Positions 16,061 through 51,200 of a stretch of DNA of 64,000 nucleotides are shown piece by piece. Within the stretch, counting starts at the first letter, position 1, and the number at the start of each line of letters is the position of its first letter. A program made the position numbers and the translations under genes. The notes below the pieces were generated by a model. It did no database searches. It was not told where the DNA came from and was given only the letters and a program-made list of their open reading frames with translations. Source of the DNA: Stegostoma tigrinum (Eukaryota); contig NC_081367.1 in assembly GCF_030684315.1 (NCBI RefSeq), positions 11,886,792-11,950,791 of the forward strand. Reading direction: 5' to 3'.

Positions 16061-16207
16061 ATGTCAAGCTCTGATAAAACTCCCGAGGTGGATCTCAGAC
16101 ACATCTTGAAGATGAACAGGACTGAGATTTCAATGGCCATCGATGACCTCTTCCCATTTCTACATGGACTGGTGGATCACAATGTCATCACAGAGCAAAT
16201 ATTCAAG
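16061..16207 (+). CDS. AIRE: AIRE exon 1 (CARD/HSR N-half)
   Basis: ATG...AAG|gtatga; [49 protein letters not shown] vs human [38 protein letters not shown]. Confidence 0.93.
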
Positions 16208-22200: not shown

Positions 22201-24153
22201 AGACCCAAGTGTGCAAGAAGGCCACACACACGGGCTAAATCCTTAACTTCAATAGCAACCACCCCACCATACACAAACAGAGCAGCATTAAGACACTATC
22301 TAAACGAGCCTTATCACATTGCAACACCCCAGAACTCCAGAGAATGGAAGAGGAACACCTGCACAAAGTATTTATTGACAACAGATACCCAAGAAGTTTC
22401 ATCTGCTGATGCCTACAAAACAAACAACAGTCAGAGGCCAGAGTACAATAGAAGACACTAGCAACGCTAACCTACCTCAAAAAAAAATCAGAAATGACAA
22501 CCAGACACCTTAGACAGCATAGGATCATGATTGCACTGAAACTTGCATCAACACTGCATCAAAAGCTATCAAAGACTAAAGACTTCATACCAACAGTACA
22601 CAGGATTAACATGTGTACAGAATCCCATACAGTGAGTGCAATAAACATTACATTGGACAAACAGGGAGGAAACTGACAACCAGGATACACGAACACCAGC
22701 TGGCGTAAAAAGACACTAACAATATTCACTTGTCTCAATACACACAGACAACGAAGGACATCAGTTCAACTGGGACAAAGTGATGATACTGGGACAAATG
22801 AACAACAGATATGCAAGGGAATTTCTGGAGGCCTATTTCTGAACATGGGTTTCCATTAACAAGCACATAGAAAGAGAGCCTGTATACAGATTGCTGCTGA
22901 GAAGCAGAACCGGAAGCGACAAGTGACACCAGAGAATCACACTAACTTGGAACAGAACAGAACACCTATGCTTCAATTAGAGGTCACACTGATGATGTTG
23001 CCTAGAATGGTAACAAAACATCTGCACACCACAGAACAACCGGGTTGGCGAGCAAACAAACAACCATAAGCATCTGTATCCAAATGAACGGCTGGGATGT
23101 AAATGGTTGCCCCTGTGCTTATGTTGACCATTGTCTGTTCACAGACTTGTTTCTGGTAATTCCCACACCTAGTTTGGTCTCCCAACTGAAACTTTCAGCA
23201 ATTCCTATCATGGGCACTGCCCCTGGTGGCCCAAATATTAGCAACTTAATTCTTCTGCTGCAATGCAATAATAGCAGAGACTCATTTGAGGTACCACTAA
23301 TAGTAATATTAGCCTGGTGTTTGCAGTCAGAGGAAGCCGAACCATATGCATATTAAACATAATCATGATTAGCCTTTTCCTCTACTGCTCAGAGCAGATA
23401 GCTACAGACAGGCGCAATTGGTGTTGGCTAAGTGAAACACAAATGAACTTGAATGATTACTTCTGCTGCTGGGTGAATGAGGAACAAGTAAATAAAACAG
23501 AAGGATCTCACTAGATGAAACTAGTAGGGAGGAGGGATGTTCTCAAAACTAAGACTTAGTGAACTGTAGGATCCTTTTCCTTGTATTGTCAGTCAACGGT
23601 TGTGCAGCCAGAACACTTCATAGATCAAACTTGCAACAATGCCTCCAACCAGAATTGGTCATCCTAGTAGGTTGATATTTTTATAAGACTGCAGCAGGAA
23701 AGTGAAAATAATTCACTGTTCTGCTTGGAATTTACAGACCTTGACCTTAATAAACTGAGACGAGGAAGGAAGACCCCCAGAATGTCTCCCAATCAGATAA
23801 CAACAAGGCCTCCGCTAAAACGAAAATCTCCCGAGGAGTCACCAGTCAGTGCTGCCGGCATGAATACAAAATGTAGCAATAATAGGGAGACACCAGGTAA
23901 GATAACATTCTATAAGGAGCCCTCGAGTGCAGCATTAAACAGTCCATTCGGCAAAATCAATGAGTTCACGTCATTCCAAGTTCAAATATACAATTTTTAA
24001 GTCCTATAGCTGTAGTACTGATGTCTCTACACTCAAATAGATCAAGTACAGAAACACACACCCCAAATACTGAGGCCTGTACACATTCAAAGGTATTCAC
24101 ACAGACACATGTTCAATCATTCTCACGCAGACACGCAGTACTGAGACCTGAGT

Positions 24154-24216
<63 letters not shown>

Positions 24217-27200
24217 CTGAGATAGCCTGTCTCATAACCATAACACACTGTGAATGAGCTAAATGTCCTGACAGTAGGACTACACGCTTCACTCAGGAAG
24301 AGACCCTAGCTAATCTGACTGGGCTACAGCTTCAACACTCCTTTCAGTGCCGGAGTTCATCAGTGAGCACTGCCAGGAGTGCAGGAAAGAACACGAGGAG
24401 GACCTTGTCTGTGCCAGGAAGGTTAAGCCCTGTTGGTTTAGAGTGGTGAGCAATTCCAGATCCCAGGAAGAAGGGCGAGAGGTTGATAGTGTGAATGGAA
24501 GGAGGCTTATATCTTGGATGGGTAATGGTGCCCCTAATGCATGCTGAACACCCCTCCCAAATGAAGTGCTCCCCTTCCTTACATCCTTTCCACATGAAGG
24601 CTGTTAACAACAGCCTGCTTGACCATCCATGCCGAACATATTTTGGCACCAGCAGCATGTTCTTTATGTCTTGTTAAAATGACCTTTATTTAATTATCCA
24701 AATATGACAGGTGGGCTGCCAATTTCAGCACCTGTTCACTTGGCACTTTTCCTTCATGGATGAGAGGGTCACAGGCTGGGTCAGCATTTATTGCCCATCC
24801 CAAATGGCCCAGAGAGCAGTTAAAAGTCAAGCACATTGCCATTGGCCTGGAGTCTCACATGCCATACCCGGTATTTTTGGCCAATCTCTATCGCCGAGGG
24901 AAATTAATAAACCAGATAGGCTTTAAACAGCAATAAATGCATGGCTACTCATGGGCTTAAGTTTTAATTCCAGATTTTTGTTGAATTCAAATTTCACCAT
25001 TTGCTGTGGTAATATTTGGGCTCTTGTCCCCAGAATATCACCCTAAGGTTCTGTCGAAGACCCTAGATTAAATCACACACCAAAGGCCCAGACTTCAAGG
25101 CAAAGAGATTTTATTCGTGATATCAATGAGAGTCAACGCTGACAAAAGATCAGGTCCGAAGACTCCGACAAGTACAAAAAAGAAGCAGAATTTATACAGT
25201 GGTACAAACAAGTTAAAACAAACTGTAATTGTACTGTATTTTTAACAAGGCAAGGTTTTTACTTAGGAACCAGATATACATTAATTAAAGCAGAATGCGA
25301 TGAAGATAAGATTGTGCAGATGTTGCGAGCTCCAGCTTTTTGCTGTCTGTCCTTTGTGACTTCTCAGAGTAGGGAAAGGCAGGTTGCAGATACGACAATA
25401 TGTACTGTTTCATAAAGCTAAAGTTTCCCTACTTTGTGCTCCTAGTCATATATTATTTTAACTCATTACTACTCAGCCTAAATTAAACAGTCTCAACATT
25501 CAAGTACTCCACAGGTTCTGAATTAATACCTCAGTGCCATTACCATGATGGCACATCATTGGCAAAGCTCAAGGATAGGTTTGAATCAGGGGATGGTTAC
25601 AGAACACGGGGCATTTATTCTGAACATCAAGCCTGTGCTGCTTCTCTGAAAATGTGGTTTGGCCAGTCCCAATCCTCCGTGTTTTCCCCATATTCCTGCA
25701 TTTTTTTTTCTTCTCTTCAGGCAGTTATCCAATACTGTAATTGTTTTTCCTTCATCATGCTCAGGGTCGGGATGTTAAGGCCTCCCTGGAACTGGCCAGT
25801 CGATGGTAGAGGGGCACCTACCTGCCTTTACTGGTATTTTATCTCTGGCAGGCAAGGAGTGGATGGCCCAACTGATCATCGTGTCACAGATTCAGCATGG
25901 AAACAGACCCTTTGGTCCAATCAGTCCATGGCAACCATAATCCCAAACTAAACTAGTCCCACCTGCCTGCACTTGGCCCATATCTCTCTAAATATTTATT
26001 ATTTATGTACTTACCTAAATGTCTTTTAAACACTGTAATTGTACCTGCATCCACCACTTCCTCTGGAAGTTCATTCCACACACGAATCACTCTGTGTAAA
26101 AACAAAATTGCCACTCACATATTTTTTAAATCTTTCTTTTCTCACCTTAAAAATATGCTCCCTCGTCTTGAAATCCATGGACCAGTTCAGGCCCTTGGTT
26201 GGCCAGATAAATGCCAGTGAAGATATCTGGATTGTCCAAAACTGATGCTGAATTGAACAACCTTGTAAGTCAGAAATTCATGGGCTATCAACTGAGCCAC
26301 TCATAGGAGCCATCTAGTAATACAGCATAAGACCTAGAACACTACAGCACAGCACAGGCCCTGGAGCCCACGATGTTGTGCCGAACATTTACCCTAAACC
26401 TAAGGTCTATCTAACCTCCACCCCTACCTTATACTATCATCCATATGTCTGTCTAATAGCCGCTTAAATGCCCCTAGTAATGGGAATGACAATACCTGGA
26501 TACTTGACTTAATGCTTTCCAGCAATATGACATTAACCATATTGCTTTTCAGGAGCAATATTGAAAGGAAGAATCGCGAGAAAAACAGAGAACACTAACA
26601 TTGTCAGAGTGCCGCAAAGAAGTGGTAAGTAATCTCGAATTCCAGCATGGTTGGATCAAGTGACAGTGTCAAGGATCTTCAGGAAATGGGGCTGTTACAT
26701 TTTGGCTCACCCCCAAACATTGTACTCATGCCCAGCTTGGAAGGCACATTCCATAAGCAGAGCCACAGCTCTATCGAAGGACTTATCCCACCCAATGCCT
26801 TTGAGCTCAGATTTTCAGTTTCTGCCCATATGGAGCATGTTTTCAAAGGGGCAGGAATTGGATCCACTCAGAGGTGTTTCCTTGACCACGACCGACCTTC
26901 TGACCTGAGGACTTTTAACTGATTTTCATGAGTTCCTGGGTCTTCCATGCAGCAATGACATCGTACTCTGCGTATGAAAGATATGTTACTTTGTGTCAGT
27001 GAGATGTGACTAATTGCCAGTGGCAATTTTCTTTGTGTCATGAAAATGTAATTCTGTCTGTGAAATCTCTCTGTTAGTGAGATGCTATTCTGTGTATTGA
27101 AGAAATATAAATCTGTGAATCAGTGAAACATTACTCTGTGTAAAATGAGATAACACTCTGTGTAGTGAGATGTCTCTCTATGTATCAGTGAGATATTACT

Positions 27201-30200
27201 CTGTGCGTCGGTGAGATATTATTCTTTGTCAGTGAGATGATACTCCACGTGTAGTGAGATTAGATTAGATTAGATTAAAGTGTGGAAACAGGCCCTTCAG
27301 CCCAAGAAGTCCACACCACCCCTTGCAGTCCATCCACCTAGACCCATCCCCCTATAACCCATGCACCCCTGAACACTACAGGCAAGTCACTCTATGTATC
27401 AGTGAGATGTTACTCTGTGTGTCAGTGAGATATTACTCTGTGTGTCAATGAACTGGGACTTTGTTAATGAGGTGTGAACAGAGGATTTAGGAGCAGGAGT
27501 AAATCATTTGGCGCTTTAAGTCTACTTTACCATTCAACAAGTTTGTGCTTGAACCAGTTTTTGCTTCTTAGAGTAAGAAAATCTCTTTCCATTTTAAGAG
27601 TGGGTTTTCTCAGTGTTAACTGGCTTCCTTGTATCTGCCACGTATCAATTCATCTTGTAACCTTGTGTATTTCAAATGGAGAACATCTCATTCGTCTAAA
27701 CACAAGGGATTACAGGCACAACATTTTCAACCTTTCTTCTGAGAAAAGCCCTCCATCCCAGGTATGAATCTTTTCTGAGATAACACAGGAAGTTGACGTC
27801 AACTTTCCTGCTCTTCTGATGCTGCCTGGCCTGCTGTGCTCCTCCAACTCTACACTGTGTTATCTCTGACTCCAGCATCAGCAGCTCTTACTATCCCTGA
27901 GTGAATCTTTTCTGAATTGTTTCTAACACAATTGCATACATTTTTTAAAGAAAAGGAGTCCAAATCAGTGAGCAGTGTTCCAGATGTGGTCTCACCAAGG
28001 CACAGTAAAGCTACAGTGAAACTTCCCGACTTTAATATTGAACTCAAGGATGGTCACTGCACTTTACAGGAAGGATGTAATTGCTCTGAAGGTAGGGCAA
28101 AGAAGATTAGATTAGATTAGATTCCTTACAGTGTGGAAACAGGCCCTTCAGCCCAACAAGTCTACACTGCCCCTTGAAGCATCCCATCCCGGACCATTCC
28201 CTATAACCCACACACCCCTGAACACTATGGGCAATTTAGCATGGCCAATCCACCTAGCCTGCACATCTTTGGACTGTGGGAGGAAACCGGAGCACCCGGA
28301 TGAAACCCACGCAGACACAGGGAGAATGTGCAAACTCCACACAGACAGTTGCCCGAGGCTGGAAACAAACCCATGTCCCTGGCACTGTGAGGCTGCAGTG
28401 CTAACCACTGAGCCACCATGCTGCCCATAAAATGATTTACTAGAATATTTCCTGGGCTGGAAAATTATAGCAACAATGAGAGGTTGGGGTTGTTTTCCTT
28501 GGAACAGAGAACAGTGATTCTCTGATTGAGATATACAGAATTGTGAGGGATGAAGATAGAGTAGATGAGAGGATTCTGTTTCCATTGGCAGAGAGTTCAA
28601 AAGTCAGAGATTGTAGATTTAAGCTTAGTGGCAAAAGGATTAGAGGAAACACGAGGAAAAACCTTTTTGTGCAGGGGGTGGTGGGGATCTGCAATTTGCT
28701 GCCTGAGTTGGTAATGGAGACAAAGAACTCTTAAAAACATACCCGGATCTGCACCTCAAGTGCTGTAAGCTGCATGACTATAGGCTATGTGCAGGAAGAT
28801 GCAATTAGAAAGGGTATTTGGAAGCCTTTGGATTGTCATGGACAAATTGGGCTGAATGGTCCCCTGCTCTGCTGTATCTTTTCAATGGCTGTAGGTTCTA
28901 TTCACCATGAAATAAGTGCCAACATTCCACTTGCCCTTCTGATCACTTGCTGACACTGCATGCTAGTTAGGAATCATGTACCAAGACACTAAAATTTTCC
29001 TATACACAGAGCTCTTTAATTTCAGTTGTTACAGATAATATCCTCCTTTTCCATTCTTCCTGCCATAATGGAGATTACACTATTCCACATTATACACTAT
29101 TCACTTGTGGATATCCTTTTGTAGATGTGTTATCCACCCCACTCCCCCACCAACCTTGAAAATTTATTTTCCTTCCTAACTTGACGGCATTGATAAACTT
29201 AAATGCTGGTCTCAAAGCCCTTTGGTTTACTGCCTTTAATCTCCCCCGTTTCCAATCTGCTTAGACTCTCCCAGATTTTTGAGAACATTGGAAGGTTATA
29301 ATCAATGCCTCTACAAATTCAAGAGCTACTTCTTTTGAGATTGAAGGATGCAGGTCGTCTGGTTTTGGGGACTTGTCACCCTTAAGGCCCAAAAGTCTTC
29401 TTTGTTGATAAGGATTGTTTGACGTTCCTCTACCCCTTTTACATCTTAATTTTCAGGTTTCTTTGAAAAGCTTTTCAAGACTTCTGCAGTGAAGAGAAAT
29501 TCAAAATGCTTATTGCTATCTCCCTATTTTCCTTTATCAGTTCTGCCAGATTCCACCTAGAGGAACAAAACTAGTCTCAGTCACTTTTTTTTCTTATTCA
29601 AATACCGTGGAAACTCATGCTGTCTGTTTTTGTACCTGGCTATCTGTTTGCCATTCTTTGATTCCTCTGTCTGTTTATTTTTTCGCCATTCTTTGCTGTT
29701 TCTTAAAATCTGATCAATTTTCTGACCTACCACTAACCTTGACAGATTTGTACAATGTTTCTTTAAATTTGATGTGATCCTCAACTTGTTTATTTGCCCA
29801 TGGATGATGCATCCTTGCCAGAGATTCTCCTTTCTCATTGAGTTAACTCTTAGTTGAGCGCTATTAAGTATCTCCTTATTCTGTTATTCTTATTTTTGTA
29901 ATTGTGTACATCAATAAAATGTTTCCTAGTTCAGTGAAGTGTTGTACTGTTTGTTTGGTGGTTGTGCCTGAAATTTTTCGTATGTACTTATTTTAGTATT
30001 TCCTTTTAATAAGGAACACAATCAGTTCAAAGAGACAGCAATCCTGCAACCAATGAACTTTCTGCCTCGAATGCTAATGTTAAGGGAATTCTCATCAAGC
30101 AAGTCTTAGAATCAGGTATTAAACTAATCACAATGCACACTCAGGATGGGGACCAATATGCGAATGGAGCTGAAATGTAACTTTGTTTTTCCTCATTTCT

Positions 30201-33200: not shown

Positions 33201-36200
33201 CATGAAATAATACAGAAGTTGCCTATCAGCCCACTGAGTCTGCTGTGACTCTTTTGAAGAGTAAACCAGCTGATCCCGCTTTCTAACTCATTGTCCATAT
33301 CTTTGCAATTAGTTTTGTCTACAAGTATTCATCCAATTCACTGCTAAAGGCTAGTCTTGAATTGTAGTTCCTAACATCAAGACAGCATAAAAAAAACATT
33401 TTGTCTTGCTCTGAGCAGCTCCTGGCTTGACCATTGATATAATGTATTTATTGTGTGTAGCCAAATAATGTACATGCTAAAATTCTGAATACTCTGAAAA
33501 TTATTTCAGCTCAGTTTAAGATTTTCAAAGCTTTGGTTCTTTAGCCAATTTTATTAAGCCCATGCCGTCCAGTTTATTGACCTTTGAACTGTTGGAACCA
33601 ATTTTTCTTTTTGTTTTTATCTTCAACTTTTCTTAAACCCTAGTAAAAGCCTGCTCGGCACTCTCTGTTCAAGAAAGAACAATTCCAACTTCTCCAATCT
33701 ATGCACAGAACTATATTGTAGTTCGTGAAACAGTTCAATTTTTCTCTTGCTTTACTTCAATGGAAGGGTTTATTTCTCAGCTTCTCAGGAGGCAAAGATG
33801 AGGTCTGTTACAGGGGAAGGCCTTGGTGGGTTGGCATACAGGAAAGCACTGATGAGCTTCCAAACTGAACTGCAGCATGCATTTGAGGCTGGATAGACAG
33901 CCTCCTGCCTTTGGAGTATGGAAGAGGGTATCAAATAGAGCTTGTCCTCTTCATAGTCTCTGGTTATCCTGTTATGGGAAGAATATTTTTAAACTGGAGG
34001 GGGTTCAGTAAAGATTTACCAGGATGTTGATGGGAATGGAGGGTTTGGTATATAAAAAAAAGGGAAAGGCTGGCACTTTTTTCACTGAATCGTAGCAGTT
34101 TGAGGGATGGCCTTATTGAGGTTTATAAAATCATACTGGGCATAGAAAAGGTGAACGACAAGGGTCTTTTCCCTCAGGCAGAGTAATTCAAAACTAGGAG
34201 GCATCATTTGAAGGTGAGAGGCAAAAGATTTAAAAAGGACATGAGGGGCAACCATTTTTACACAGAGAGTGGTTCATGTGTGGAATGAACTTCCAGAGAA
34301 AGTGATGGATGCAGGTACCGTTATAATGTTTAAAAGATATATGGATAAGTTCATGAATAAGGAAGGTTTGGAAGGATATGGGCCAAATGCAAGAAGTTTA
34401 GTTTTGGAACATGGTCAGCGTGGTCTTGTTGGGCCAAAGGGTCTGCTTCTAGCTGTTTGATTCTATGGCTCTATGACGCTGCTCCATCTCCCTATCATCC
34501 TGCAGACCCTAAGACACTGCCACTGTAGAAAAGCAAGAACTTTATGCTAAACTTTTGAGTCACAAGTTAGGCCCCAAATGATCTTGTAGAAGATGCTAAA
34601 CTTAGAACTGAAGTCAATATTGAGTAGGATAGTAAAATATTTTGGGAACCCATACACAGCTTAGTAAATGTTCAATGCAATTTAATGGAGACAAACGTAG
34701 TGCCATGTAAATTGGTAAGAAAACCGAGGGGAAGCAAATTAGATTAAGTGATATAATTTTCAAATGGGTGTAAGGCACAGAACCCTCAGGGTTTATGCAC
34801 ACAAATCTTTGATGTGATAATATGATAAAACTTTAGAACACAAAAGCAAAGATGTTGAACTAAACATTTATTAATCATTAGTTTGGCCTCGAATGAAGCG
34901 CTGTGTCTAATTTAGGAAGGATGTCAAGACCTAGGAGAGCAGTACTGGGGATATGTAACTTGAATTCAGATGAAATGTTAAGGGAAACAGGGAATGTTCT
35001 TTTTACAGCAGAGAAAGCTAGAGAGAGGTTCATAGGAGAATCCAAATCATGAACAAGTTTTTACAGAGCAAATAAGGAGAAACCTTTTTGAGTATCAACA
35101 GGGATATATCATGAAGATACTTGATGCAAGAGGCGAGATGAGAGTACTTTTCAGAAGTGTGTTTTGATGGATGATGGAAGGAGGGAAAGATTGATAGTAG
35201 GGTAGGTGAATGAGTTTAATTGGATAACTCCTTCGAAGGGCTGACACAGAAATGATGGACTGAATTGCCTCCTTCTGTACTATGGTTCTGTAATAGGTGT
35301 TGTGAAGGATATTGACATCTGATGTATTCCATTCAGGAATTTCCAAAAAGGGAATTAAGGATACTGGAGAAACACATGCTCTCAGTAAGCCTGACGATCC
35401 CGGAGGGAAGAGTCGGAGTAAGGCCTGGAAGTTGGGCACTCGCTGCAGAGGAATACCCCAGGCGCAGGTATTGCAGAGCATCAGGAACAACACTGACAAC
35501 CCATTTATACACAGCCTTTGATCGCGGTTGAATTTGGGGTCTAATTGTCTGAGGCCACAGATACCTCAGCTGGGTGAAGGGAGGTTGGAATACACAGCAG
35601 ACCACAGCAGCAAGTGTAGACAGTTCTGGCTGTGTTGTATAGCTGGACGATGTTACAGATGTGGAGATAGAAGACCATGAAGACTTTGAAACATTGAGAA
35701 ATGTTAGTTTAAAGGTTTGGGGGGTGTGGTGCCAGGAAATTAATGCAAGTCCAGACCTCTTTATGATTTTGAAAACTTCTATCAAATTGCCTCTTAGCCA
35801 TTTTTAGTTTACAATGAGTTCAAACCCTATATTTCCAGGGCTGAGCACACTGAGGGCACTCAGGATATTGAGGAGGGCTTGAGAGCGCAAAGGCTTTGCT
35901 TGTGAACAGAAGGAAAGGCACGAGCGCAGGCCATGCCTCAGATTGCTAGTGGCTAAGTCAAGAAACCAGATACTTTATTGGATTTATTTTGGAGCAGTGT
36001 CAATCATAATGACCAGTGATAAATAATGAGATCCATAAAAGTTAGGTATGAGTGAGAATTACAAGGTCGTTACCCCGGTTCCCTCCAGGCCTGAGTTTAC
36101 TTCTGGTTGGCTCTCACACCTTTTCCTAATTTCCTGTCTGAACAGAAAAACGATGATGAGTGCGCAGTGTGCAGAGATGGAGGTAAACTGATCTGCTGCG

Positions 36201-39200
36201 ATGGTTGTCCAAAGGCTTTTCATTTAGGCTGCCTTGTACCTCCCCTCACAGAAATACCCATGTAAGTACTGGAGCTGTGGAAACAAATCATCACTTCATC
36301 GAACTCAGGGTTGCTGTGGCTCAACAAGGGGCACCTCATCTCAGAGTCAGAAGGCTGTGGGTTTGAACTGTGCTCAGGAATTGAGAGCACGTATTCTGGA
36401 TTGGTATTTTAATGCAATTTCTTATTGTTCTTCACTACCATTTGGATGAGACTTTAAACCAAAGTCCCTGTGTGTACCCACAATAGGATATTTAGAGTCT
36501 TGTGACACTAGTTAAAACAGCACAGTACTCCCTAGTATCCACCCAACATTCATAAGCAGTTTATTTGGTGTCTGTTGGTCAGTAACTCAGTAAGGCTTTT
36601 TCAACAGCACTTCCCAAGCCCATGATCTCCACCACCCAGAAGGACAAGGGCATAGCAGATTTGGGTAATACCACATTGCACAATCCCATGTGAGTCCCAA
36701 ACTGTTCAAATTTAGAAATGTCTCCCTTAATGACACTGCATCCAAAATGCTGGAACTCTCTTTCTCACAGCACTGTGGATCCACCCTGTACCAGTTAGAC
36801 TGCAGTGGTTGAGGAAAGCAGGTCATCACCTTGCTGGCAATTAGAAATGGGTAATAATTGCTGGCCTGGCCAGTGAAGCCCACGTTTCATGAAGAATTTT
36901 GTTTATTGCTTGTAGGGCCTTTCTCTGCAAATTGATTGCCATGTTTCCAATAGTGACCATACTTCAAAATTATATCCTTAGTGGTAACCAATTTGAAACA
37001 AGCTGAGGTTGTGAAATAACAAGGTGTAGAGCTGAATGAACACAGCAGACCAGGCAGCATCAAAGGAGCAGGAAAGCTGATGTTTCATGCCGGGACCCTT
37101 CCAGACCCAAACCATCACCTTTCCTGCTCCTCTGATGCTACCTGGCCAGCTGTGTTTGTCCAGCTCCACACCTCGTTATCTCATGCTCCAGCATTGGCAG
37201 TTCCTAGTATCTCTGAGGTTGCAAAAGATGTTTTAAGGTACAGACTTTATTTTTCCTATCATTTCTGATCAATATCTTGTTGAAGCTTGTGAGTGTGTGT
37301 ATGCATCAATATCAAGACAGAGTGGAATTGTTTGGGTCCAGTTTCCCACAGTTCGATGCCATGCCTGTATCCAGTGTCTATGATAACACATAGAGTCATA
37401 GAGATGTACAGCATGGAAACAGACCCTTCAGTCCAACTAGTCCATCCCAACCAGATATTCTATATTAATCTACTTCCATGTGTCAGCATTTGGCTCATTA
37501 TCCCTCCAAACCCTTCCTATTCATATACCCATCCAGATGCCTTTTAAATGCTGTAATTATACCAGCCTCCACCACTTCCTCTGGTGGTTCATTCCATACA
37601 AACATCACCCTCTGCATGAAGAAGTTGCCCCTCAGGCCCCTTTTATATCTTTCCTCTCTCACCGTAAACCTATGACACGGACGTGTCGGTTTTGGACTAA
37701 GGTGGGCAAGGTCAGAAATCAGACAACGCCAGGTTATAGTCTAACAGATTTTATTTGAAATCACAAGCTTTTGGAGTGCAGCTCCTTCGTAAGATGAAGT
37801 GAGAGAGAAGCACTCAGACACAGAATTCATGGGCAGAGAGATAAAAACATCGTACAAATGGTATGAGTGGAGTGTCGACTAATGAGTCTGGGCAGGTGAT
37901 CAAAAGTGTCAGACAGTGTGGGTTAAGTGTCAACAGCTGAATAACAAGCGAAGGGATGACCTATAATCTGATTAAATGAGGCAGAGATATAATTACAAAA
38001 AATTAAAAATAAGGTGGTGCTGGAGGCAAACCAAATGAGTACAATAACATGATAGGTATAAGGGTTGTATGCTGAGGATCTAACCAAAATAATAAGTAAT
38101 CCAAAACTGAATAACCTAATTATGTTCGAGAGATCATAACAATTTATCAAGGTAATGGTGTCAAAATATGACAGTAAGGAAGATTTTACAGACACAGAAC
38201 AGTGTGTTGGGGTCACATATAGTGCGACATGAACCCAAGATCATGACTGAGGCTGTTTTCATGGGTACGGAACTTGGCTGTCAGCCTCTGCTTGGTGATT
38301 CTGCGTTGTTATGTATCATGAAGGCCACCTTGGAGGACACTTTTCTGAAGATTGGAGGCTGAATGTCCTTGACCACTGAAGTTTTCCCTGATTTTGAGGG
38401 AACATTCCTGTCTGGCCAATGTTGCTCAGTGTCGATTTGTCCCTAGTAGCATTTGCATGGTTTCGCCAATATACCATGCCTCGGAGCATTCTTGCCTGTA
38501 GCATATGAGATGGACAACGTTGGCCTAGTCACGTGAGTATCTGCCGTGTACATGGTGAGTGGTGTTCCCACATGTGATGGTTGTGTCCGTGTCAATGATC
38601 TGACATGTCTTGCCGAGGTTGCCATGGCAGGGTTGTGTGGTGTTATGGTCGATGTTGTCCTGAAGCTGGGTAGTTTACTACGAGCAATGGTCTGTTTAAG
38701 ATTTAGCGGTTGTTTGAAGAAGTGGAGGCGTGGGGAAGACCTTGGTGAGATGCTCGTCATCATCAATGACATGTTGAAGGCTGTGAAGAACATAGCACAG
38801 TCTGTCCACTCCAGGCAAGTACTGGATGACGAAGTGTTCTGTATTGGTCGTATTGTGAGTCTGTCTTCTGAGGAGGTCATTGCAGTTTTTCTGCGTGGCA
38901 TGTCAGAACTGGCAATCATTTAATCAGGTTATAGGCCATCCCTTTGCTTTTTATTCAGCTGTTGACACTTCACTCACACTGTCTGACACTTTTGATCGCC
39001 TGCAGCGACTTATTATTCAACACTCCACTCATTCTATTTGTATGATCTTTTGATATCTCTGCCTGTAAATTGTGTCAGTGTGTTTCTCCCTCAGTTCACC
39101 AGTTTAAGGGACTACGTTCCGAAAGCTTGTGATTTCAAATCAAACCTGTTGGCCTATAACCTGGTGTTGTCTAATTTCCGACCTTAAACCAATGCCCTCC

Positions 39201-42200
39201 AGTTTTTGACTCCCCTACCCTGGGGAAAAGACCTTGGTTATTCACCCTATCCTTGCCCCTCATGATTTTATAAACCTCTGTAAGGTCATCCCTTAGCTTG
39301 TGATGCTCCGGGTAAAATAGCCCCAGCCTATTCAGCCTTTCCCCATGGCTTAAGTTCTCCATCTCTGGCAACATCCTTGTAAATCTCTTCTGCACCCTTT
39401 CAAGTTTAACAACGTCATGCGTATAGCAGGGAGACCAGCCCAGTTCGTCCCCTCCCCCCACTGCACCACACAACCAGCATCTTCCCCTCCACCCACTGCA
39501 TCCCAAAACCAGTCCAGCCTGTCTCTGTCTCCCTAACCTGTTCTTCCTCTCACCCATCCCTTCCTCCCACCCCAAGCCGCACCTCCATTTCCTACCTACT
39601 AACCTCATCCCACCTCCCTGACCTGTCCGTCTTCCCTGGACTGACCTATCCCCTCCCTACCTCCCCACCTATACTCTCCTCTCTACCCATCTTCTTTACT
39701 CTCCATCTTCGGTCCGCCTCCCCCTCTCTCCCTATTTATTCCAGAACCCTCACCCCATCCCCCTCTCTGATGAAGGGTCTAGGCCCGAAACGTCAGCTTT
39801 TGTGCTCCTGAGATGCTGCTTGGCCTGCTGTGTTCATCCAGCCTCACATTTCATTATCTTAGACCAGAATTGAATGTGATATTCCAAAAGTGGCCTGAAC
39901 AATGCCCTGTAAAGCCACAACATGAAATCCCAACTCCTATATTCAATGCACTGACCAATAAAGGCCAGGGCACCAAACGCCTTCCTCACTACCCTGTTTA
40001 CCTGCGACTCCACCATGAAGAATGCCCACTCAGGAGAGGTGCTAGAGGACATACTGTGACCATGGAATTAGTTATTCAATTCAGCCAAGACCATCTCCTC
40101 CAATGTGGTGCGGAGTCAATGAATTATTTTTGATGTACGGTCATGGTTGCTATGTAGGTGAATATGACTGATAATCTGCATTCAACTGGATTCCAAAAAC
40201 ATTAATGATCTATTTAGTTTATTTACATGGTGTTGGCTTTAATGGATAAGTAATGGCTAGTATACAAGGTGACTTTCTTTGCCCTTTCTTCAACTGGCAC
40301 AATGACTTTTCCTGCTTGTACCCAAGAGTGTTGTGTTGTCTGGTTCCACTTTAAACAAGTTACAGACAACTCTGACCAGAATGTTATGAATGTCCTACAA
40401 CACCAAAGCACTCAATTCAATATGGACACAACCTGGCACTAATACAAAACATCTCAACTTTATTAAGAACAAAGTTACAATAGCTTTTAATACTAAACAT
40501 AGCTTCTGCAATCCTGTTTGGCCCCACAAGGTTACAATATTTCCCAAGTCTCTTGTAAATTTGTGCAGTCGCTCTCTCTGTGGCCCTCTCCCTCTGGGTC
40601 TGCGAAGTTACTTTTCCTCTCTCTCTCTGGATGGTCAACTGGTCTCTGTCTTTTGTCATGCTGATCTCCTCAGAAGGCTTCATGATTCCAAGAACAGTTC
40701 CTCAGAGCAATTTGCAGGTGATCCTTGTTCTTATACTTTTTAGTTGGCTTTCTGGAACTTTCTATAGTTCTGGCCAATTAGGGAGACACACTTAATAGTT
40801 TGAAACAAGAGTCAATCATTTAGATGGTAAGCTACTGTTAGTTCCTTTATGTAGCAGGACCTACATAACTGACATCTACTGCTACAGTAGACAGACCTCA
40901 GTTTAACATCTGATGCAATAGATGGCACTTCTGACTATACTGGAAAAGAGCCAGTTTAAATTATGAGCCAATGTCTTGGTGCCACTTCATATTAGTCCGA
41001 AACCTCCAGCATCCCAAACAAGCTACCTGTTTCCATGTACAAGCACAGTCAGTGGGAATAAGTTTAACTCATGGAATTGCTGTAAAATTCAAAATGCCTA
41101 TTATGCATACTGTCCAATTTTGCAATCCATTTCCTTCATTCAGATTTTGTGGGATATTTGACTTTGGGGTGCATCACAACCGTGATAAACAACTTCCTAT
41201 GTTGACCCGCACTACAAAGCTTTCAGTTCTAATCCCATTTTTGTTATAAAACTCTCAGTTACAATATTCTTTTACATTGCCAATCCTCATTATAAAGCTC
41301 TCAGTCATAATATTCTCTATAACACATTCTACCCTCATTGTAAAGCTGTTATAACAGCCTGTTACAAATTTAAGCTTCATCATATAGATTCCAGTTTATA
41401 ATATAATTATATACGAAACCATAACACTCTTATATTTGCATCTTAAACCTTCATCTGTAGATTTATAATAATGTATTTGCTCTCCCAATGTATTCCTGAT
41501 GACTTGTCTGAACTACTCGATCACAAATTATGATTTTGTTTCTTTATCTGCTCAGTGGTACCTGGAGATGTTTATCCTGCATTAACAAAGGTGGTGACAC
41601 CCGAGCTACATTATCCTCAGCATCCGAGAAGGATCAGCAATCGCAGAGCACAGCAGGAGTCCAAGTAAGTCATGTCCAACTGAGGTCACCATCAACCCAC
41701 TCAGTTCTACAGAACATAACTTCAAAGCAGCTGAAGTAACATCTGTGACCAATGAGTTAACTATGTTTAGTGTCATACAAAGAGAAAGCACCAGCAAAAA
41801 ACTGCCCAAAGCAACCCAAGATTGGCATCCTTAGTGAACCAAATAGTACGGCCACATAAATATAGATCAAAGGCCTCCTTTTTAAGCCATTTCATTCACA
41901 ACTGTCCTATGATTAGAAAAATCACAATGGCAGTGATGCCTTGCGGTACAATTGGTACCAGTGCTAAGTGAAACCAGGTTTCACCTAAATCCATTTTCCT
42001 TCAATGACTGCCCAATGACACATACATTTCCATCTCAAAAATACTTCCCAATAATACCTTTAACTTCCACTTTACAATAATATCCTTACCTTCATCTCTA
42101 AAACACCACCAAGTTAAAATCTCACTTCCAAACCCAGGACACTGCTCAATAATCCCTGTCTATTCCATTTCTAGAACTCAGGGGCCAAGTATAGAAAGAA

Positions 42201-45200
42201 GAGGAGGACAGAAAACAGAGAGTGGGAATAAAGGGTAGTAATTTTGAGTGACAGAGATGGAAAGTCATTTTCTTGAAGGATGAGTGAGCTCACTAAGATG
42301 TTGAACATTTGTATTAATAATTTAGGTTTTGGAATCACAAATCCAAATTTGCAGAGGACACCAAATTTGTCAGATAGTCAATAAAATATAATGCAAAATA
42401 ATATATTCCCAATACACTTGTGGAATGAGAAAATAATTGGTAAACAAATTTGAATAGAGTTAAGTATGAGATACTAATACACTCTGGTAAGAAAATTAAT
42501 GAAGTCTCATAATATTTGCATAATAAGAATCTATCACATTCTCCCCATGTCTGCTTTCCTCCGGGTGCTCTGGTTTCCTCACACAGTCTGAAAGATGTGC
42601 AGGTGAGGTGGATTAGCCGTGGGAAATGCAGGGTTACCGGGATAGCATAGGAAAGTGGGTCTGAGTGTGATATTCTTCAGGGGGGCCGAATGACCAGCTT
42701 TCACACTGTAGGGATTCTATGATTCTATAAATAGGATGGATGAGGAGAGAGACCTCGGAGTGCAAATAAACAACTTACTAAAAGCTGTGATGTAGGTTAT
42801 TAGGCTATTTTTAAAAATAAAGCAAATTAAATGCTAAAGTTTCTTTCCAGAGATTCAAAATTGAAAACTGGAGAAGATATAAAAACTTGAGGTTCAGCTA
42901 CCTTTATAGGTATGGAGAGTTCAAGGAAAACTCATAGATCCAAGTCTAGAAATGGAAGCTTATGCCTCTAAAGAAAGACTGGAATTCTTTTAGGCTATTT
43001 TATAATGATTAAATTAGGAAAGGTTTTAGTTGAGTACACACTGATATAAAATTTCCACTTTTGCTGGAGAGCAAAACTAATGACCATTAAAATGCGAGTC
43101 ACCAAAAAATCAAATAGGGAATCCTGAAGGAACTTATGTCCCCAGAGTGATGACAATGTAAAACCCCATTAGCACAGGGAGTAGTTGAAACAAATAGTAG
43201 AATTGTGTTTAAGGAAAAGCTAGACAAGAATATGATGACTGATTGTGTTATAACAGCAAAGAAAGGAGAGGTTTCAGTTTGAACACCAAGGATTAGTTTG
43301 GTGAATATCTTGTTTCTCTGATGTGTATTCTATGAAATTATACTAATTATATCCTCATTTTAATCTTTACAAATATTGCTCAAAACTGCTGTTATTGACA
43401 GCTACTGAACATTAGTTAATGCGTCACATCTCAATGCTAGCTACCTATATCTTCATCTGTGTACTTATCATCCCAACATTCATATCTCCAAGATACATTG
43501 ACTAACTTCACTAACACTTCAGAAGTTAACCAAAAATTTTGCCAATAACTTGAATTATTTTCCTAACAATCTACCTCAATCAATCCAGAAGAAAGCTGCC
43601 TTGGTCATTTCACCAGATCTCCCTCATCATTCAGCTGCACTCCCCTTATTCCCCCATCACATTTCCTTCAGCCCTGATCCTACCCTCTGCTCCTGTCACT
43701 ACACATCAGTATTTTGCACTCCAATTCTTCACACAACATGGTCTTCTCTTTCTGGCTGTTTTCCCTCCAATAGCTTCCTTCCCATCCATTTTGCTGGAAT
43801 TGGGAATTGCATTTTGTCAGGGATTTGTTTTATAAATTTGTGTTGATGCCTCCTCACTTTCCTATACAGTGATTGCTTGTTTTGTGCACTAGGTGGTCTT
43901 ATATCAGCAGAAGTTGGTGGGAGAGTTGGAGCAGCTGCTGAGATCATCACCATTTGCCAACAAAGAACATCCTCCTAGCATTGGACTACCATCCACAGCA
44001 ATAACCACAGCACCATCTTCAACATCCTCTTCAGCTGCATCTTCCTCTTCAGCTTCTTTTACTGCCAATCAGAAACAGCGGGTAACACAATCCATCACAT
44101 GATGTTTGCATTTATTCCTGTGCCAGTCTTCCCCATACTATCACAATCTCAGCTCCAAGGTTCTCCCATGTCTTAACCATTCTGCAATCGCGCACACAAC
44201 TTGGAATTTCCAAATCTCACCCATTCGGCCGCACCCGCCCCCCCCCCCCCCCCCCCCCCGCAACCCCCGCACCCCATTTTCATCAACACAGTTCGGGATC
44301 AATGTTCCTCATTGTCTTGGAACTCACTCTTCTCTCCTTCATGATCAGTCTGGATGCCCATTCCCCAATCCCACCATAGCAATCTTAAGCTTTGGTTCCC
44401 TTCTGAACTCATCAGATGACATTCTGACATCTATTTATTCCCCCTCATCCATCTCATAACTACATTTTGGGACGTCTGTGTTTTCCTTTTGTCCCTCCAA
44501 TATGATATTTTCCCTCTCCTTCTGTTATTGATGACATAAGACACTGCCCTTATTTGAACAATTGTAACCTTCATACTGCATCCTATAGTTTAGTTCTCAA
44601 TGTTTCCTCTTCTTTATCCAAGTACCCGCTTCTCCATCCATCTCTGCTTCATTTCTATCCACCCTGTTACCCTATACCTTTAATATTCCTTCTTTTCTTC
44701 CCTCACTGCTATCCTAGTTCCCTCTCTTTTCATAATTGCAGCCCTTCCCCCTTTTCTTTATCCCCTTTCTCTTTAAAATCAACTTCCGTCCTTTCTGCAT
44801 CCAGCTGCCCCAGGCTAAAGGCAGGAAGTTTCATTCTTGTTCTGTCATTGCTCTGTCTGGGACGAGTAATGCTATTCCTAATGCCACGTGTTTATATTTT
44901 CAGATCTTGTTGCAGACCCGTGAAAATCAGCCCCTGAACCCCAGCTGTGGTGTGTGCAAAGCTGGAGGAGATCTGAAATGCTGCACCCAATGCCGTGGAG
45001 TCTTCCATTCCCACTGCCATTTCCATGCCGCCCCTGAGGACATGAGGTATGTAATCAGAGAATCTAGGACAGCATTTGGAGAGGTTAAAGTAACTATATA
45101 TCATTAACTCAGTGAGTCTGATGTTAGGTCCAGACTAAAGTAGATGCTGAACTCTCAATGAGAAATTGAAAGCAGGAAGCTTCATAATTTCATCTGCATT

Positions 45201-48200
45201 ACAGGACGGGGAGATGTATCTCCTGTACAAACACAACAATGCTGAACAAATCTACTGAGCCTGAGTTACAACTGAAGTCGCCGACCACACAAACAGCTAT
45301 GGTAAGTCAGTGTCCTTTTATGACCCAGTACGACTTGTAACTGTTATTCAGGTATTTATTTAGCTGATAGCTGGATTCTCAGAGTACTGTTTGCATATGT
45401 TTTAAAACCCATAAAAAGTTATCCTGACTTCAATTCCTGATCAGTACAATGTATACTGGGTGGTCTCTACTATCTTATTCAGTTGCTCACACTTTAGGTT
45501 TGTATCTGGGCAGAGTGTTAGGAGAATGTTGAGCGGCAGGATCTCTGATGAAGGGTCTAGGCCCGAAACGTCAGCTTTTGTGCTCCTGAGATGCTGCTTG
45601 GCCTGCTGTGTTCATCCAGCCTCACATTTTATCATATCGGAGAAGGATCGGATCTTGGTTTAACATCTCATCGAAAAGGCACAGTCTTTAACAATGCTGA
45701 ATGCTGTCTAAATTACAATGGACGTGCTATTCTAGATTCTGTAGTCTGACCTTCGGCCTGGGGCATGAGCCCCATAGCTGTCTGGCTCAGACTGCTGTAG
45801 TAGAGGCCAAACAGTTTGTATAGAACTGAACAGGAATTGTAAACCTTTAAGGAATAATAGCAAAAAACTTCTGAGTAAAAGTTCAAGGAAAGAATGAACA
45901 ACAAATCTGTGATTGTCAGCTGATTAGCAATTCAGAATATGAATTACATGTCCAGAAAATCCAGAATTGATTAACACTCATTTCAAAGCTTTTTCTTCGA
46001 TATTGTAATGAGAATTGTAAATCCTGATCTACACACTTTATGTAGCATTCAAAGCATTGGCATTCCAGGAACGCATAAAAGAAAGCAGTTTTATACTTGA
46101 CATACCAAGGTGTAGAGCTGGATGAACACAGCAGGCCAAGCAGCATCAGAGGAGCAGGAAGGCTGACATTTTGGGCCTAGACCCTTCTTCAGAAATGGGG
46201 GAGGGGAAGGGGTTTCTGAAATAAATAGGGAGAGAGGGGGAGGCGGATAGAAGATGGATAGAGGAAAAGATAGGTGGAGAGGAGACAGACAACTTAAAAA
46301 GGCAGGGATGGAGCAAGTAAAGGTGAGTGTAGGTGGGGAGGTAGGGTGGGGATAGGCTACTCCAGGAAGGATGGACAGGTCAAGGGGGCGGGATGAGGTT
46401 AGTAGGTAGGAAATAGGGGTGCGGCTTGAGTTGGGAGGATGGGATAGGTGAGAGAAAGAACAGGTTAGGGAGATGGGGATAAGCTGGGCTGGTTTTGGGA
46501 TGCGGTAGGAGGAGGGGAGATTTTGAAGCTTGTGAAATCCACATTGATACCATTGGGCTGCAGGGTTCCCAAGCTGAATATGAGTTGCTGTTCCTGCAAC
46601 CTTTGGTGGAATCGTTGTGGCACTGCAGGAGGCCCTGGATGGACATGTCGTCTGAAGAATGGGAGAGGGAGTTGAAATGGTTTGTGATTGGGAGGTGCAG
46701 TTGTTTAGTGTGAACCCAGCGGAGGTGTTCTGCAAAGCGGTACCCAAGCCTCCGCTTGGTTTCCCTGATGTAGAAGAGGCCACGACGGGAACAGCAGATA
46801 CAGTATACCACATTAGTAGATGTGCAGGTGAACATTTGCTTGATGTGAAAAAGTCTTCTTGGGGCCTGAGATGAGCGTGTTGGGGGAGGTATTGGGGCAG
46901 CTGTAGGACTTCTTGCAGTTGCAGGGGAAAGTGCTGAGTGTGGAGGGGAGTGGACAAAGGAGTCCTGGAGAAAGTGGTCCGTCTGGAAAGCAGATAAGGG
47001 TAGGGAGAGAAAAATGTCTTTCGTGGTTGGGTCAGATTGCAGATGGTGGATGTGTTGGAGGATGATGCGCTGGATCCGGAGGTTGGTGGGATGGTACGTG
47101 AGGACGAGGAGGATTCTGTTTTGGTTGTTATTGTGGGGAGGGGGTGAGAGGGATGAGTTCCGGGAAATGCAGGAGACCTGGTTGAGGGCGTTCTTGACCA
47201 CTGAGAGGGGGAAGTTGCGGTCCTTGAAAAATGAGGACATCTGAGATATACAGGAGTGGGATGCCTCATCCTGGGAGCAGATGCGCTGGATGTGAGGGAA
47301 TTGGGAATAGGGGGTGGCATTGTTGCAGGAAGGTGGGTGGTAGGAGGTGTATTCTAGGTAGCTGTGGGAGCCGGTGGGCTTGAAATGGATATGGGTTTCC
47401 AGGTGGTCGCCAGAGATGGAGACAGAGAGGTCCGGGAAGGAGAGAGAGGTACCAGAGATGGCTCAGGTGAACTTAAGGTTGGGGTAGCAGGTGTTGGTGA
47501 AGTGGATGAACTGTTCAAGCTCCTCGTGGGAGCAGGAGGTGGCACCGATACAGTCATCACTGTAACTGAAGAAGAGGTGGGGTGTAGGGCCAAAGTAGCT
47601 ACAGAAGAGGGATTGTTCCACGTAACTTACAAAGAGGCAGGCATAGCTTTGTCCCATGTGGATACCCATGGCCACCGGCTTTGTCTGTAGATGTGGGAGG
47701 AATTGAAAGACAAGTTGTTGAGGGTAAAAACCAGTTCAGCCATACAAATGAGGGTGTCAGTGGAGGGGGACTGGTCGGGCCTGTGGGACAGGAAGAAGCG
47801 GAGGGCCTTTTGGCCATCTGCACGGGGAATGCAGGTGTACAGGGACTGGACGTCCATGGTAAACATGAGGTGTTGGGGACCGGGGATTTGGAAGTTCCGG
47901 AGGAGGTGGAGGGCATGGGTGGTGTCACGGACGTGGGTTGGGAGTTCCTGGACCAAAGGGGAGTAAATGGAGTCGAGTTTTATACTTAGTCAGGTGTGTC
48001 ATCATGCCTGGGTGGTGTATTTATCTTCTCAATTAGTCATCTTCAACAGTGTCAGAACTTGTTGGGGATGGTGTATGATAAATCAAACCACAACATTCCT
48101 CAAGCTGTCACAATTCTGAACCACCAAACTGCTGAATTGTGAGTGACTGTCTAATTGACTGAATTAGCTTAAAATAATACTGGGTTTTTGCCCCTTGAAC

Positions 48201-51200
48201 ACAAAAATAACTAGATACTGTAATCATGAAAGAAACATAGTCAGAGGAACACAGTTCTGAATCACTGGTCCAAAATCACAAAACTAGTTTTTCCTTTCTT
48301 CAATTATACCTTGATGTTATTCGTACAGCAATGGTCAGTCTTTAGTTCACTAATTAATCTTTCTTTTACTCTCGACTTTAGCATTCTTCCTTTCAATAAT
48401 TCCAAATGTAGGTCTTCCCTGATCCTTTAACAGAGAAATTGCTCAGAGAGGTTAACTTTTCAGACTAGAGGAACATAGAGAGAGAGAGAGAGAGGGGGGG
48501 GGGGGCGGGTGTGGGGGGGCAGGGGGAGACAAAAAAATATGTTGATGCTGCAGGCTTCCGGGGCTTCCGTCATCTGTGGTTTCATTCCCCTCACTGGCTC
48601 TGTGTTAACCTGCAGCCAGCCCAATCAGAACATTGTCCCTATGCTGAACCCTCTTGTGCACACGACAGGGTGCCAATTAAAAAGCCAATCAAAATACTGT
48701 CTCCAGGCAGAATTGCCTGGAAGCACACAATAGGGGATGCCTATTTGTCTGGACTGCTCTCTCATTTCTCTCAGGAAGCAACATTTCAATCACTATCACA
48801 ATTCACACTCTGCTCCAGATAACATGTTTCTCCAACTGCAAACATCTTCATACAAAGTTTTCGATTTTCACCTTCAATCCAAAATAAAGCAAAATGGTCT
48901 TTAAAACAGTTCCTTGGGATTGAAGATGACCTTTTATGGCTTTGAGGGTCCTGAGTGTACTCAAAGAGAGCTTGGCCTCCATTTCATCCAATCAGGGACA
49001 CTCCTAACAGTTGGCACCTTCAAGGATGTTTCTTCTCAAGTTTGAGTTATCATGAAATCCCATGGATTAATGGGGAAATTGCATTTGTTTCAAGGAAGCT
49101 TCAGGATATCTTTAACTGACCAGAGCTGAGCTTTCTTTCTTGACAGAGCAGTGAGGGATTCACCCTGGTTCATTGTAGCCCTGGGATGTCAACCTTGGAT
49201 TGAATAGGAAGTCTCTGTTGAGTAGCTGTTATCCCCACAGCGGGTAGGAACACAAGAGACCAAGTACGAGTCAAAGTGTTAAAAACAGAGTAACGCACCA
49301 TCTATGAATCCAATTTAAAAAATCTTCTGCTCAATTGCACTGGTCTTCTCAGTTCAATTTGCCAGAAATTGGCTAAACCGTCAGAAGAGATCAAATAATT
49401 TCAAGTGCAAATTATGTTCAACACAACATCAAAGTTCTGCGATTTTTGTTTTGTGCTAGCTGAAAGAAAATTGCACTCAAAACTGGCCCTGCCAAGAAGA
49501 CTAACCATGTCCCATTGGGCTCTCAAGATTAAGCTGCTTTTAGAGGCACAAACACGAAAAGCACATTTTAAAAATGTATTTCTAAAATGACTATTTTTTA
49601 AAAAAATACTCTAAAACTGACTATTACACAAGAATGATATATACATCAAGCAATTTACTTTTACAAAGAGTCATACTGTACAGAAACAAATCCTTCTGTC
49701 CATCCAGTCCATGTCAAACATAATCCCAAACTAAACTAGTCCCAGCTGCTTGCTCCTGGCCCATAACTCTCCAAACCTTTCCTATTCATGTATCTATCCA
49801 AAGGTCTTTTAAATGTTGTAATTGTGCACACATCCACCACTTCCTCAGGAAGTTCATTCCAAATGCAAGCCACCCTCCATGTAAAAAAATTCCCATCATG
49901 TCTTTGCCAAATCTCTCTCCTCTCACCTTAAAAATTTGCCCCCTAGTCTTGAAATCCCCAGTCCTATGGAAAAGACAACTGCCATTCACCCTTTCTATAC
50001 CACCCATGATTTTATAAACTTCTATAAGGTTAGCTCTTAACCTCCTATGCTCCAGCGATAAAACTCTCAGCCTATCCAACCTTTCTTTATAGCTTGACCC
50101 TTCCATACCCAGCAACATCCTGATAAATCTCTTCTGAACATTCTATAGGTTAATAATATGCCAAAGGTTTTTAACAAATTACAGTCTATTGTACTGCCTG
50201 TTTGAGTTGGTTCATAGCAGATTTTATATTCATCACTATACAAATTAGTTTGATCAAAAACTTGAGTAAAAAATATCTTCTGAATACAAGAGAACTTTGC
50301 ACCGAGATCATCGATTGTGCTCAAGGCTGAATATCCTGTGTGCATTGTTTAATTTTTTGGCTTCTCTTGGTCTTTCTCTTTAGGCTGTTGAACATGAAGC
50401 AGAAGTAGATTCATTTATTAATGAGCAGCTCTTCAACAAGGAAGAGTTTGACTCAATTCTCCGAGAGGTGAGTTTGTAATAAATCCAGGGAGTACAAAAA
50501 GGATTAACCAAACATGGAGGGGACTGTAGGTCAGAGACTGGCCTTTCACACTCTGGGACATGACAGTACAAGGGTAGAGAATAGGCAGTGTGGGATATTG
50601 AAATTGTAAATGTTGTTTCAGAAGCACAGACTTCAGGAGCAGGAAGGATGAAGGGAGGTCTAATCAGATTTCGATGCCCTGTTTGTCTGAAAATGTCATA
50701 TGCCAGAAAGCCAGTTGGTGAAGGATACAACTGAGATCAATTGTATTCATGTTAATTAAGTCTCCCAACGAACGGAAATTGAGAATGTACTTATCGAGGC
50801 TATATTTTAAAAAGTTTTTTTAAATTTTATTTCCTTTTAAAACATTTTTTACTATTGGATATTTCACCATCCAGCACATCAACAGGAGTTAAAACCGAAA
50901 GATATTGTAAATCAGAAGCAAAAACAGAGGTTGCCAGAAAATCTCAGCAGGTCTGGCAGCATCTGTGAAGGGAAATCAGTTAATGTTTCAGGTCCAGTGA
51001 CCCTTCCTTGAATCTGATGGCAACTAGGAAAATGTTGGTTTATGCGCAAAATATAGGGTGGTGTGTGGGGTGGGGGGGGGGGGGGCAGCATCCATAGTCA
51101 TAAGATCATCAGCCACCATTTCCACCACCTCCAGTGATATGCCACCACTAGACACATATTCCCCTCCCCTCTCTTGTCTGTCTTCCACAGGGAGCATTCC

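Follow-up and report, generated by a model that had tools for sequence, protein, structure and literature searches.

AIRE of the shark Stegostoma tigrinum carries an SP-type SAND motif in an otherwise degenerate SAND domain

The stretch of DNA analysed here (the window; 64 kb, G000:C17:11886792-11950791 in genome-search coordinates) harbors the AIRE gene of Stegostoma tigrinum on the plus strand. A tblastn search with 10 cartilaginous-fish AIRE proteins revealed exons from 16061 to 55977 in the order CARD, basic segment, exon 5, exon 6, PHD1, PHD2 and C-terminal tail. Most exons were 85–97% identical to whale-shark AIRE, the closest match. The first and second halves of the CARD/HSR are encoded by exon 1 (16061–16207) and exon 2 (18653–18829, ends approximate), which were also detected by an HSR match. 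Exon 3 (23737–23898, ends approximate) encodes the basic segment and is followed by exon 4 (26552–26626, ends approximate), by exon 5 (30014–30115) with the N-terminal part of the SAND domain, by exon 6 (35337–35467) with its C-terminal part, and by the PHD1 exon (36146–36261), which was assigned by tblastn and protein models. The remaining exons (41557–55977) comprise the end of PHD1 (about 41557–41667), an exon at about 43893–44084, PHD2 (about 44901–45047 and 45200–45298), an exon at about 50384–50470 and the C-terminal exon (about 55909–55977). The architecture CARD/HSR-SAND-PHD1-PHD2-C-terminal tail without a bromodomain identifies the gene as AIRE, and all 10 matches of a homologue search were AIRE-type proteins, 9 of them so named by the first name given in the source. 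Mammalian AIRE is the orthologue, and its exons for the CARD, SAND, PHD1, PHD2 and C-terminal tail follow one another as in the shark. The introns of the gene contained high-copy repeats.

An SP140-like gene with the domain order HSR-SAND-SAND-PHD-bromodomain (exons scored singly) is located head-to-tail upstream of AIRE on the same strand (G000:C17:11858938-11888774). Its HSR, two SAND domains and PHD (E = 4.5e-7) lie before the 64-kb stretch (G000:C17:11858938-11885150), and its bromodomain exon (1834–1983; Pfam bromodomain, E = 8e-12) lies about 14 kb before the start of AIRE. The domain scan of this region covered 143 of 171 candidate frames. A reverse-transcriptase fragment (PF00078, E = 7.8e-7) was present at 4244–4813, between the bromodomain exon and AIRE. 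The domain order is that of an SP140-like protein, with two SAND domains, which are likewise found in the SP140-like proteins of horn shark, catshark and chimaera. The motifs of the two SAND domains are KNWK and RYWK, and the first SAND has the sequence GGKARSKNWKLSIRCKG. In the SP family and in AIRE alike, the SAND domain is flanked by HSR and PHD, but AIRE has PHD2 instead of the bromodomain and one SAND instead of two. The SP140-like and AIRE records of chimaera and of horn shark were on contigs of identical size, with consecutive ids in chimaera, which is indirect evidence that the linkage of both genes is conserved in these species.

Exon 6 was assigned by splice sites, block scores and coverage by a contig from a run that may be RNA. 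It comprises 131 nt, is preceded by a pyrimidine tract with an AG acceptor and followed by a GT donor, and leads from phase 1 to phase 0. In the neighbouring SP gene, the second SAND exon is preceded by the same phase-1 intron. With 44 codons, exon 6 is 3 codons shorter at its end than the SP SAND1 exon with 47 codons. In the closest protein models the PHD1 exon directly follows exon 6 with no linker exon, and the galeomorph shark AIRE models run straight from SAND into PHD1 (35464–35469, 36146), without a linker of the tetrapod type. The PHD1 exon (36146–36261) encodes DGGKLICC, as in whale-shark AIRE, while at least 90% of the aligned rows have Glu at the variant column. This column corresponds to E307 in ape numbering, a residue which we take to have a role in histone H3 binding.

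None of the sequencing runs recorded as RNA contained this stretch. A 622-nt contig (depth 8.36) from run X1, which derives from a related organism, aligned to 35333–35463 and showed 5 differences to exon 6 (record letters 470–600 used). A contig of equal depth from the same run differed from exon 5 at 30044. Both exon 5 and the intron ahead of exon 6 end in TCAG, which explains why the alignment starts at 35333. Among the joints listed for the run contigs, beyond which there were 426 more, neither the exon 5-6 joint nor the exon 6-PHD1 joint was present. If the run is indeed RNA, its contigs fit a spliced exon 5-6 transcript. Exon 6 was present in 9 of 10 cartilaginous-fish AIRE protein models, which are gene models and not cDNA. 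The AIRE model of Scyliorhinus torazame (P0006) has unrelated sequence instead of exon 6 and the PHD1 exon, and this gap is either a model error or a real loss.

A preliminary description of this DNA had placed a KAWK motif of the SP type at the KDWK position of the SAND domain of AIRE. Translation confirmed that KAWK is encoded at 35420–35431 (plus strand), within the segment 35402–35458 in exon 6. By alignment it occupies the column of the SAND KNWK/KDWK motif, and the KNWK of the intact chimaera orthologue aligned to KNW[KR]/KDWK of five solved SANDs, so that the proposed position was also verified. Compared to the K-[DN]-W-K recognition-helix motif, K, W and K are kept and position 2 is Ala. 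For 198 non-AIRE SAND stretches 39 motif types were listed, and KAWK was not one of them. The Pfam SAND profile (PF01342) matched exon 6 alone only weakly (14.1 bits, E = 0.039), under the 22-bit cut-off; the match of exon 6 reached 21.3 bits (E = 0.59) in a genome-wide profile search, and comparison to the SP140 SAND gave E = 0.074. The match is nevertheless not due to chance, since orthologous exons are present in 9 cartilaginous-fish species and the chimaera orthologue aligns to solved SANDs.

The S. tigrinum genome also has SAND exons with KDWK, presumably of DEAF1. The best SAND match of the genome, L001 (G000:C36:16880822-16881010), was a KDWK SAND encoded mostly in one exon. The SAND domains of GMEB1 (1OQJ, aligned here) and DEAF1 (KDWK) have their motif in the same column as AIRE, but these proteins are more distant, having no HSR and no linkage to AIRE in the S. 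tigrinum genome. The SAND domains of SP100, SP110 and SP140 (PDB 8J70, 8J71, 1H5P, 1UFN) resemble shark AIRE in the motif and the residues that follow (SP140: GGHARSKNWRLSVRCGG). Unlike these, shark AIRE lacks the W-x-T-P-x-x-F block and the leucines of the last helix.

We compared the state of the domain to 207 SAND stretches in representative proteins, of which 198 non-AIRE stretches were profiled after removal of 9 AIRE-like ones. This sample leans to SP-type SANDs because the chimaera SAND was the query. Block scores were computed without the mouse and cattle rows. In exon 6 of S. tigrinum the motif block was kept, with a score of 6.8 (non-AIRE median 13.1, 5th percentile 4.2), and the strand block was degenerate, with a score of −26.1 (non-AIRE median 24.4, minimum 2.7). 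The degeneration of the strand preceding the motif had been pointed out before, and we indeed found T, L and P at columns occupied in non-AIRE SANDs by W (95%), P (94%) and F (99%). Eleven well-conserved columns chosen from the non-AIRE profile (C, I, W, T, P, F, W, K, I, L, L) were defined as the core. S. tigrinum AIRE kept 3 of the 11 residues (the 11th column is beyond exon 6), other elasmobranch AIRE proteins 3–5, those of bony vertebrates 4–7 and chimaera AIRE 10, while 195 gap-free non-AIRE rows had 8–11, partly by construction. S. tigrinum AIRE thus does not have the conserved core of a folded, DNA-binding SP-type SAND. With 3 of 11 core residues the SAND domain is likely unfolded, and the loss of most of the core makes it likely that the protein cannot read DNA sequence.

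A SAND domain that still folds in sharks, be it alone, upon binding or against PHD1, could bind DNA with some specificity via KAWK. The motif block still has its K, W, K, R, C and G, four sharks reached 27.9–36.5 bits with the Pfam SAND profile, so that 4 of 6 elasmobranch AIRE records passed the 22-bit cut-off, and the replacement residues are common across elasmobranchs. The strand-block residues are fairly conserved among elasmobranchs (majority fraction 0.71 versus 0.85); the domain could thus be changed and yet folded, which speaks against a mere basic patch. However, W-18, P-15, F-12, I+4, L+11 and L+14 were replaced or absent in S. tigrinum, with Pro in the column that is 99% Phe, and no sampled non-AIRE SAND had fewer than 8 of the 11 core residues. 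From these sequence comparisons we regard a folded shark SAND as rather unlikely. In an AlphaFold prediction of whale-shark AIRE the CARD had pLDDT values of about 95–98 and PHD1 of about 83–90, and the SAND region had values of about 45–54 without secondary structure. The chimaera control likewise did not fold (mean pLDDT 52.7); only its SAND hairpin was confident (86) and its PHD1 failed. Searched with the chimaera model, Foldseek returned nothing at E ≤ 0.001, and its 29 weak rows included no SAND. Both predictions were built on one 74-row alignment, and due to the failure of the control they do not settle the fold of the shark SAND.

Whole AIRE proteins were scored with the Pfam SAND profile, which gave 72.9 bits for chimaera, 56.6 for coelacanth, 53.9 for turtle, 30.4 for orangutan and 32 for whale shark (P0001, the closest whole protein). 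Heptranchias (20 bits) and skate (14.5 bits) had lower values, and both models lack exon 5. The preliminary description had called the strand ahead of the motif more degenerate than in human AIRE; taken as a whole, the shark SAND is as degenerate as the mammalian one, to go by whale-shark and orangutan AIRE. Compared to chimaera, five elasmobranchs were identical at 4–6 of 15 positions in the strand block and at 10–11 of 17 in the motif block, and four bony vertebrates at 11–12 of 15 and 7–9 of 17, respectively. Mammalian AIRE keeps the strand block and lacks the Trp, and shark AIRE shows the reverse. These block scores and identities support the earlier suggestion that the SAND domain decayed differently between lineages. 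Judged from the sequences, the decay is complementary: sharks lost mainly the strand block, and bony vertebrates mainly the Trp helix. Five squamate AIRE models (P0043, P0094, P0098, P0105 and P0109) lack the half of the SAND that exon 5 encodes and have no precomputed SAND match, possibly due to a further lineage-wide loss of the SAND or to model gaps.

Among 127 AIRE records examined, 125 had a match to exon 6. The Trp of the motif was present in 13 of 14 cartilaginous-fish records with exon 6 (8 of 9 species, including a single chimaera species) and in none of 111 bony-vertebrate records with exon 6. The bony-vertebrate set was taken from the best 120 of 778 matches; it is rich in turtles, basal ray-finned fishes and mammals, and no bird, frog or percomorph name was among these best 120. 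P0103, one of the two unmatched records, has exon 6 and no Trp. KAWK or KTWK was found in AIRE of whale, bamboo, epaulette, horn and smooth-hound sharks, KIWK in Heptranchias, KNWK in the chimaera Callorhinchus and KTLK, with the Trp lost, in the skate Rhinoraja. A further homologue search for sharks and rays returned 5 records, all of them already in the set. Mammalian AIRE lacks the Trp, and among cartilaginous fishes the Trp is widely shared but, as seen for the skate, not universal.

The motif may persist merely because shark proteins evolve slowly, without any function. The loss of the Trp in the skate and of most core residues would agree with such a neutral relic, as would a substitution map of human AIRE, the available part of which reports the SAND's C-terminal half to be mostly tolerant (10.1101/2025.11.18.688830). 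Within the same exon, however, the motif block is clearly better kept than the adjoining strand block (10–11 of 17 versus 4–6 of 15 identical to chimaera), which suggests selection, and of the 19 residues of the segment 13 also occur in the SP paralogue, 10 of them with different codons. We consider neutral persistence unlikely. The designation of the motif as a fossil, used in the preliminary description, understates its conservation.

The 13 of 19 residues common to SP SAND1 and the AIRE segment are accompanied by a DNA identity of only 32/57, and these values together with the 10 of 13 differing codons indicate that the likeness is old. AIRE was nearer to SAND1 than to SAND2 in three SP proteins (chimaera 13–16 versus 8–10 of 25 residues). 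Adjacency, shared residues and similarity to SAND1 substantiate the proposed tie between AIRE and the neighbouring SP gene. Instead of being ancestral, the motif could also have reached AIRE through gene conversion, with the adjacent SP gene as donor. The two genes lie next to each other, and in a tree the row sister to the AIRE clade was chimaera SP SAND1 (support 0.84). A recent conversion was rejected because of the differing codons, and chimaera AIRE keeps AIRE-type residues of coelacanth and mammals (12 of 15 in the strand block). An old conversion in the chondrichthyan stem is possible, but altogether conversion appears very improbable. The tree (70 columns, midpoint-rooted, 194 of 198 non-AIRE rows, deeper nodes weak) grouped 16 AIRE SANDs in one clade (support 0.977) with chimaera basal.

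AIRE of the chimaera Callorhinchus milii (XP_007904521.2, P0266) shares the GKSRSKxWK…RC.G block with whale-shark AIRE (11 of 17 identical). Unlike the shark protein, it has an essentially canonical SAND with KNWK and 10 of 11 core residues, and its 72.9 bits (P0266 / P0011) were the top Pfam SAND score among 18 AIRE proteins scanned. A mis-joined SP exon was rejected as an explanation, since the RefSeq and UniRef models agree and the row falls inside the AIRE clade. Chimaera AIRE is, by its sequence, the best candidate for a DNA-binding AIRE.

To define the register to mammalian AIRE, we used orangutan AIRE (P0117, 545 aa) as a stand-in for the human protein; G228, F236, N244, R247 and R257 match the human numbering. 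RNLK of coelacanth, RNPK of lungfish, RSLK of turtle, RSPK of marsupial and KTAK of sturgeon aligned to KNWK without gaps. Placental AIRE has an insertion of 2–3 residues inside the motif, which makes the Trp column ambiguous in placentals. The closest shark models also differ from mammalian AIRE by lacking the SAND-PHD1 linker. Orangutan K243–A246 aligned with K-S-R-S ahead of the motif. The first Lys of the motif is matched by R247 and the last by K253, and this last Lys is the sole invariant column in 74 alignment rows. The basic residues K243, R247, K253, R257 and K259 of mammalian AIRE align with K/R in shark and chimaera. KNKA had been taken as the mammalian counterpart of KDWK, but in our alignment it lies 4 residues upstream of the KDWK column. 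NKAR 244–247, to which KDWK is said to have changed in AIRE in the part available of the study presenting the substitution map (10.1101/2025.11.18.688830), lies 3 residues upstream. The same part lists F236, N244 and R257 as less tolerant and neutral median scores of 0.61–0.85 for NKAR, which do not favour a key role of R247 in that assay. In the non-AIRE profile, the column aligned with F236 has 99% Phe and the one aligned with R257 has 57% Arg. R247C is reported to be dominant negative in the accessible text of PMC7118133.

According to the portions available of three sources, KDWK mediates DNA binding by SAND domains and is lacking in AIRE (PMC5021326, PMC9440513, PMC2225445). Two of these, in the same portions, attribute the missing specificity of AIRE to the absent KDWK (PMC9440513, PMC2225445), and one cites in vitro DNA binding by the AIRE SAND (PMC2225445). 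DNA binding of AIRE through the SAND is called controversial in the available part of 10.1101/2025.11.18.688830. Elephant-shark AIRE is noted in the accessible part of PMC3964593, there without domain detail, and the parts available of two reviews (PMC8773594, PMC5816566) contain no such comparison of the SAND across lineages. Our literature search, which did not cover comparative AIRE work (Saltis 2008), found no paper that deals with the SAND motif of AIRE in chondrichthyans or with the adjacency of SP and AIRE genes. It also returned no paper for KNKA together with AIRE and the SAND domain, Bottomley 2001, which possibly bears on the register, not being covered, and none for the structures 8J70/8J71. 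Since AIRE sequences are in public annotations, a specialist may already have noticed the motif.

On balance, we think that the KAWK segment probably represents an inherited SP-type motif that is now a constrained, largely unfolded basic patch with non-specific affinity. AIRE would have arisen when an SP140-like gene whose SAND was complete underwent tandem duplication, the AIRE SAND corresponding to the first SAND of SP. The jawed-vertebrate ancestor would have had an intact SAND, as still present in chimaera. Elasmobranchs would then have lost mainly the strand and core block, and bony vertebrates the Trp and the last helix, with basic residues retained in both. In S. tigrinum, where the core is likely lost and, going by the closest models, the segment rich in K/R lies directly beside PHD1, the basic patch would add non-specific affinity for DNA, nucleosomes or a partner and would not read sequence. 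Conservation of the Trp would not be expected of a patch that acts by charge alone and counts against this reading.

It is conceivable, and we put this forward tentatively, that AIRE began as an SP140-like factor able to read DNA, that the chimaera SAND is still folded and sequence-preferring, and that sequence-independent targeting came later, through separate decays of the SAND in elasmobranchs and in bony vertebrates. Early AIRE may have bound DNA, and the chief support for this comes from chimaera AIRE, not from S. tigrinum. If true, the lysines of the motif survive as human R247 and K253, and R247C would strike an old DNA-contacting face. By the corrected register, the human residues to mutate or interpret are R247, K253 and R257 and not N244–A246. 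The tandem arrangement of the SP140-like gene and AIRE points to the origin of AIRE. Cartilaginous fishes and bony vertebrates form a natural series on the question of whether the AIRE SAND binds DNA, with an intact domain in chimaera, the motif without the core in sharks, and the core strands without the motif in bony vertebrates. KAWK, the shark motif, is by itself less informative than this series and chimaera AIRE, in which most of the value lies.
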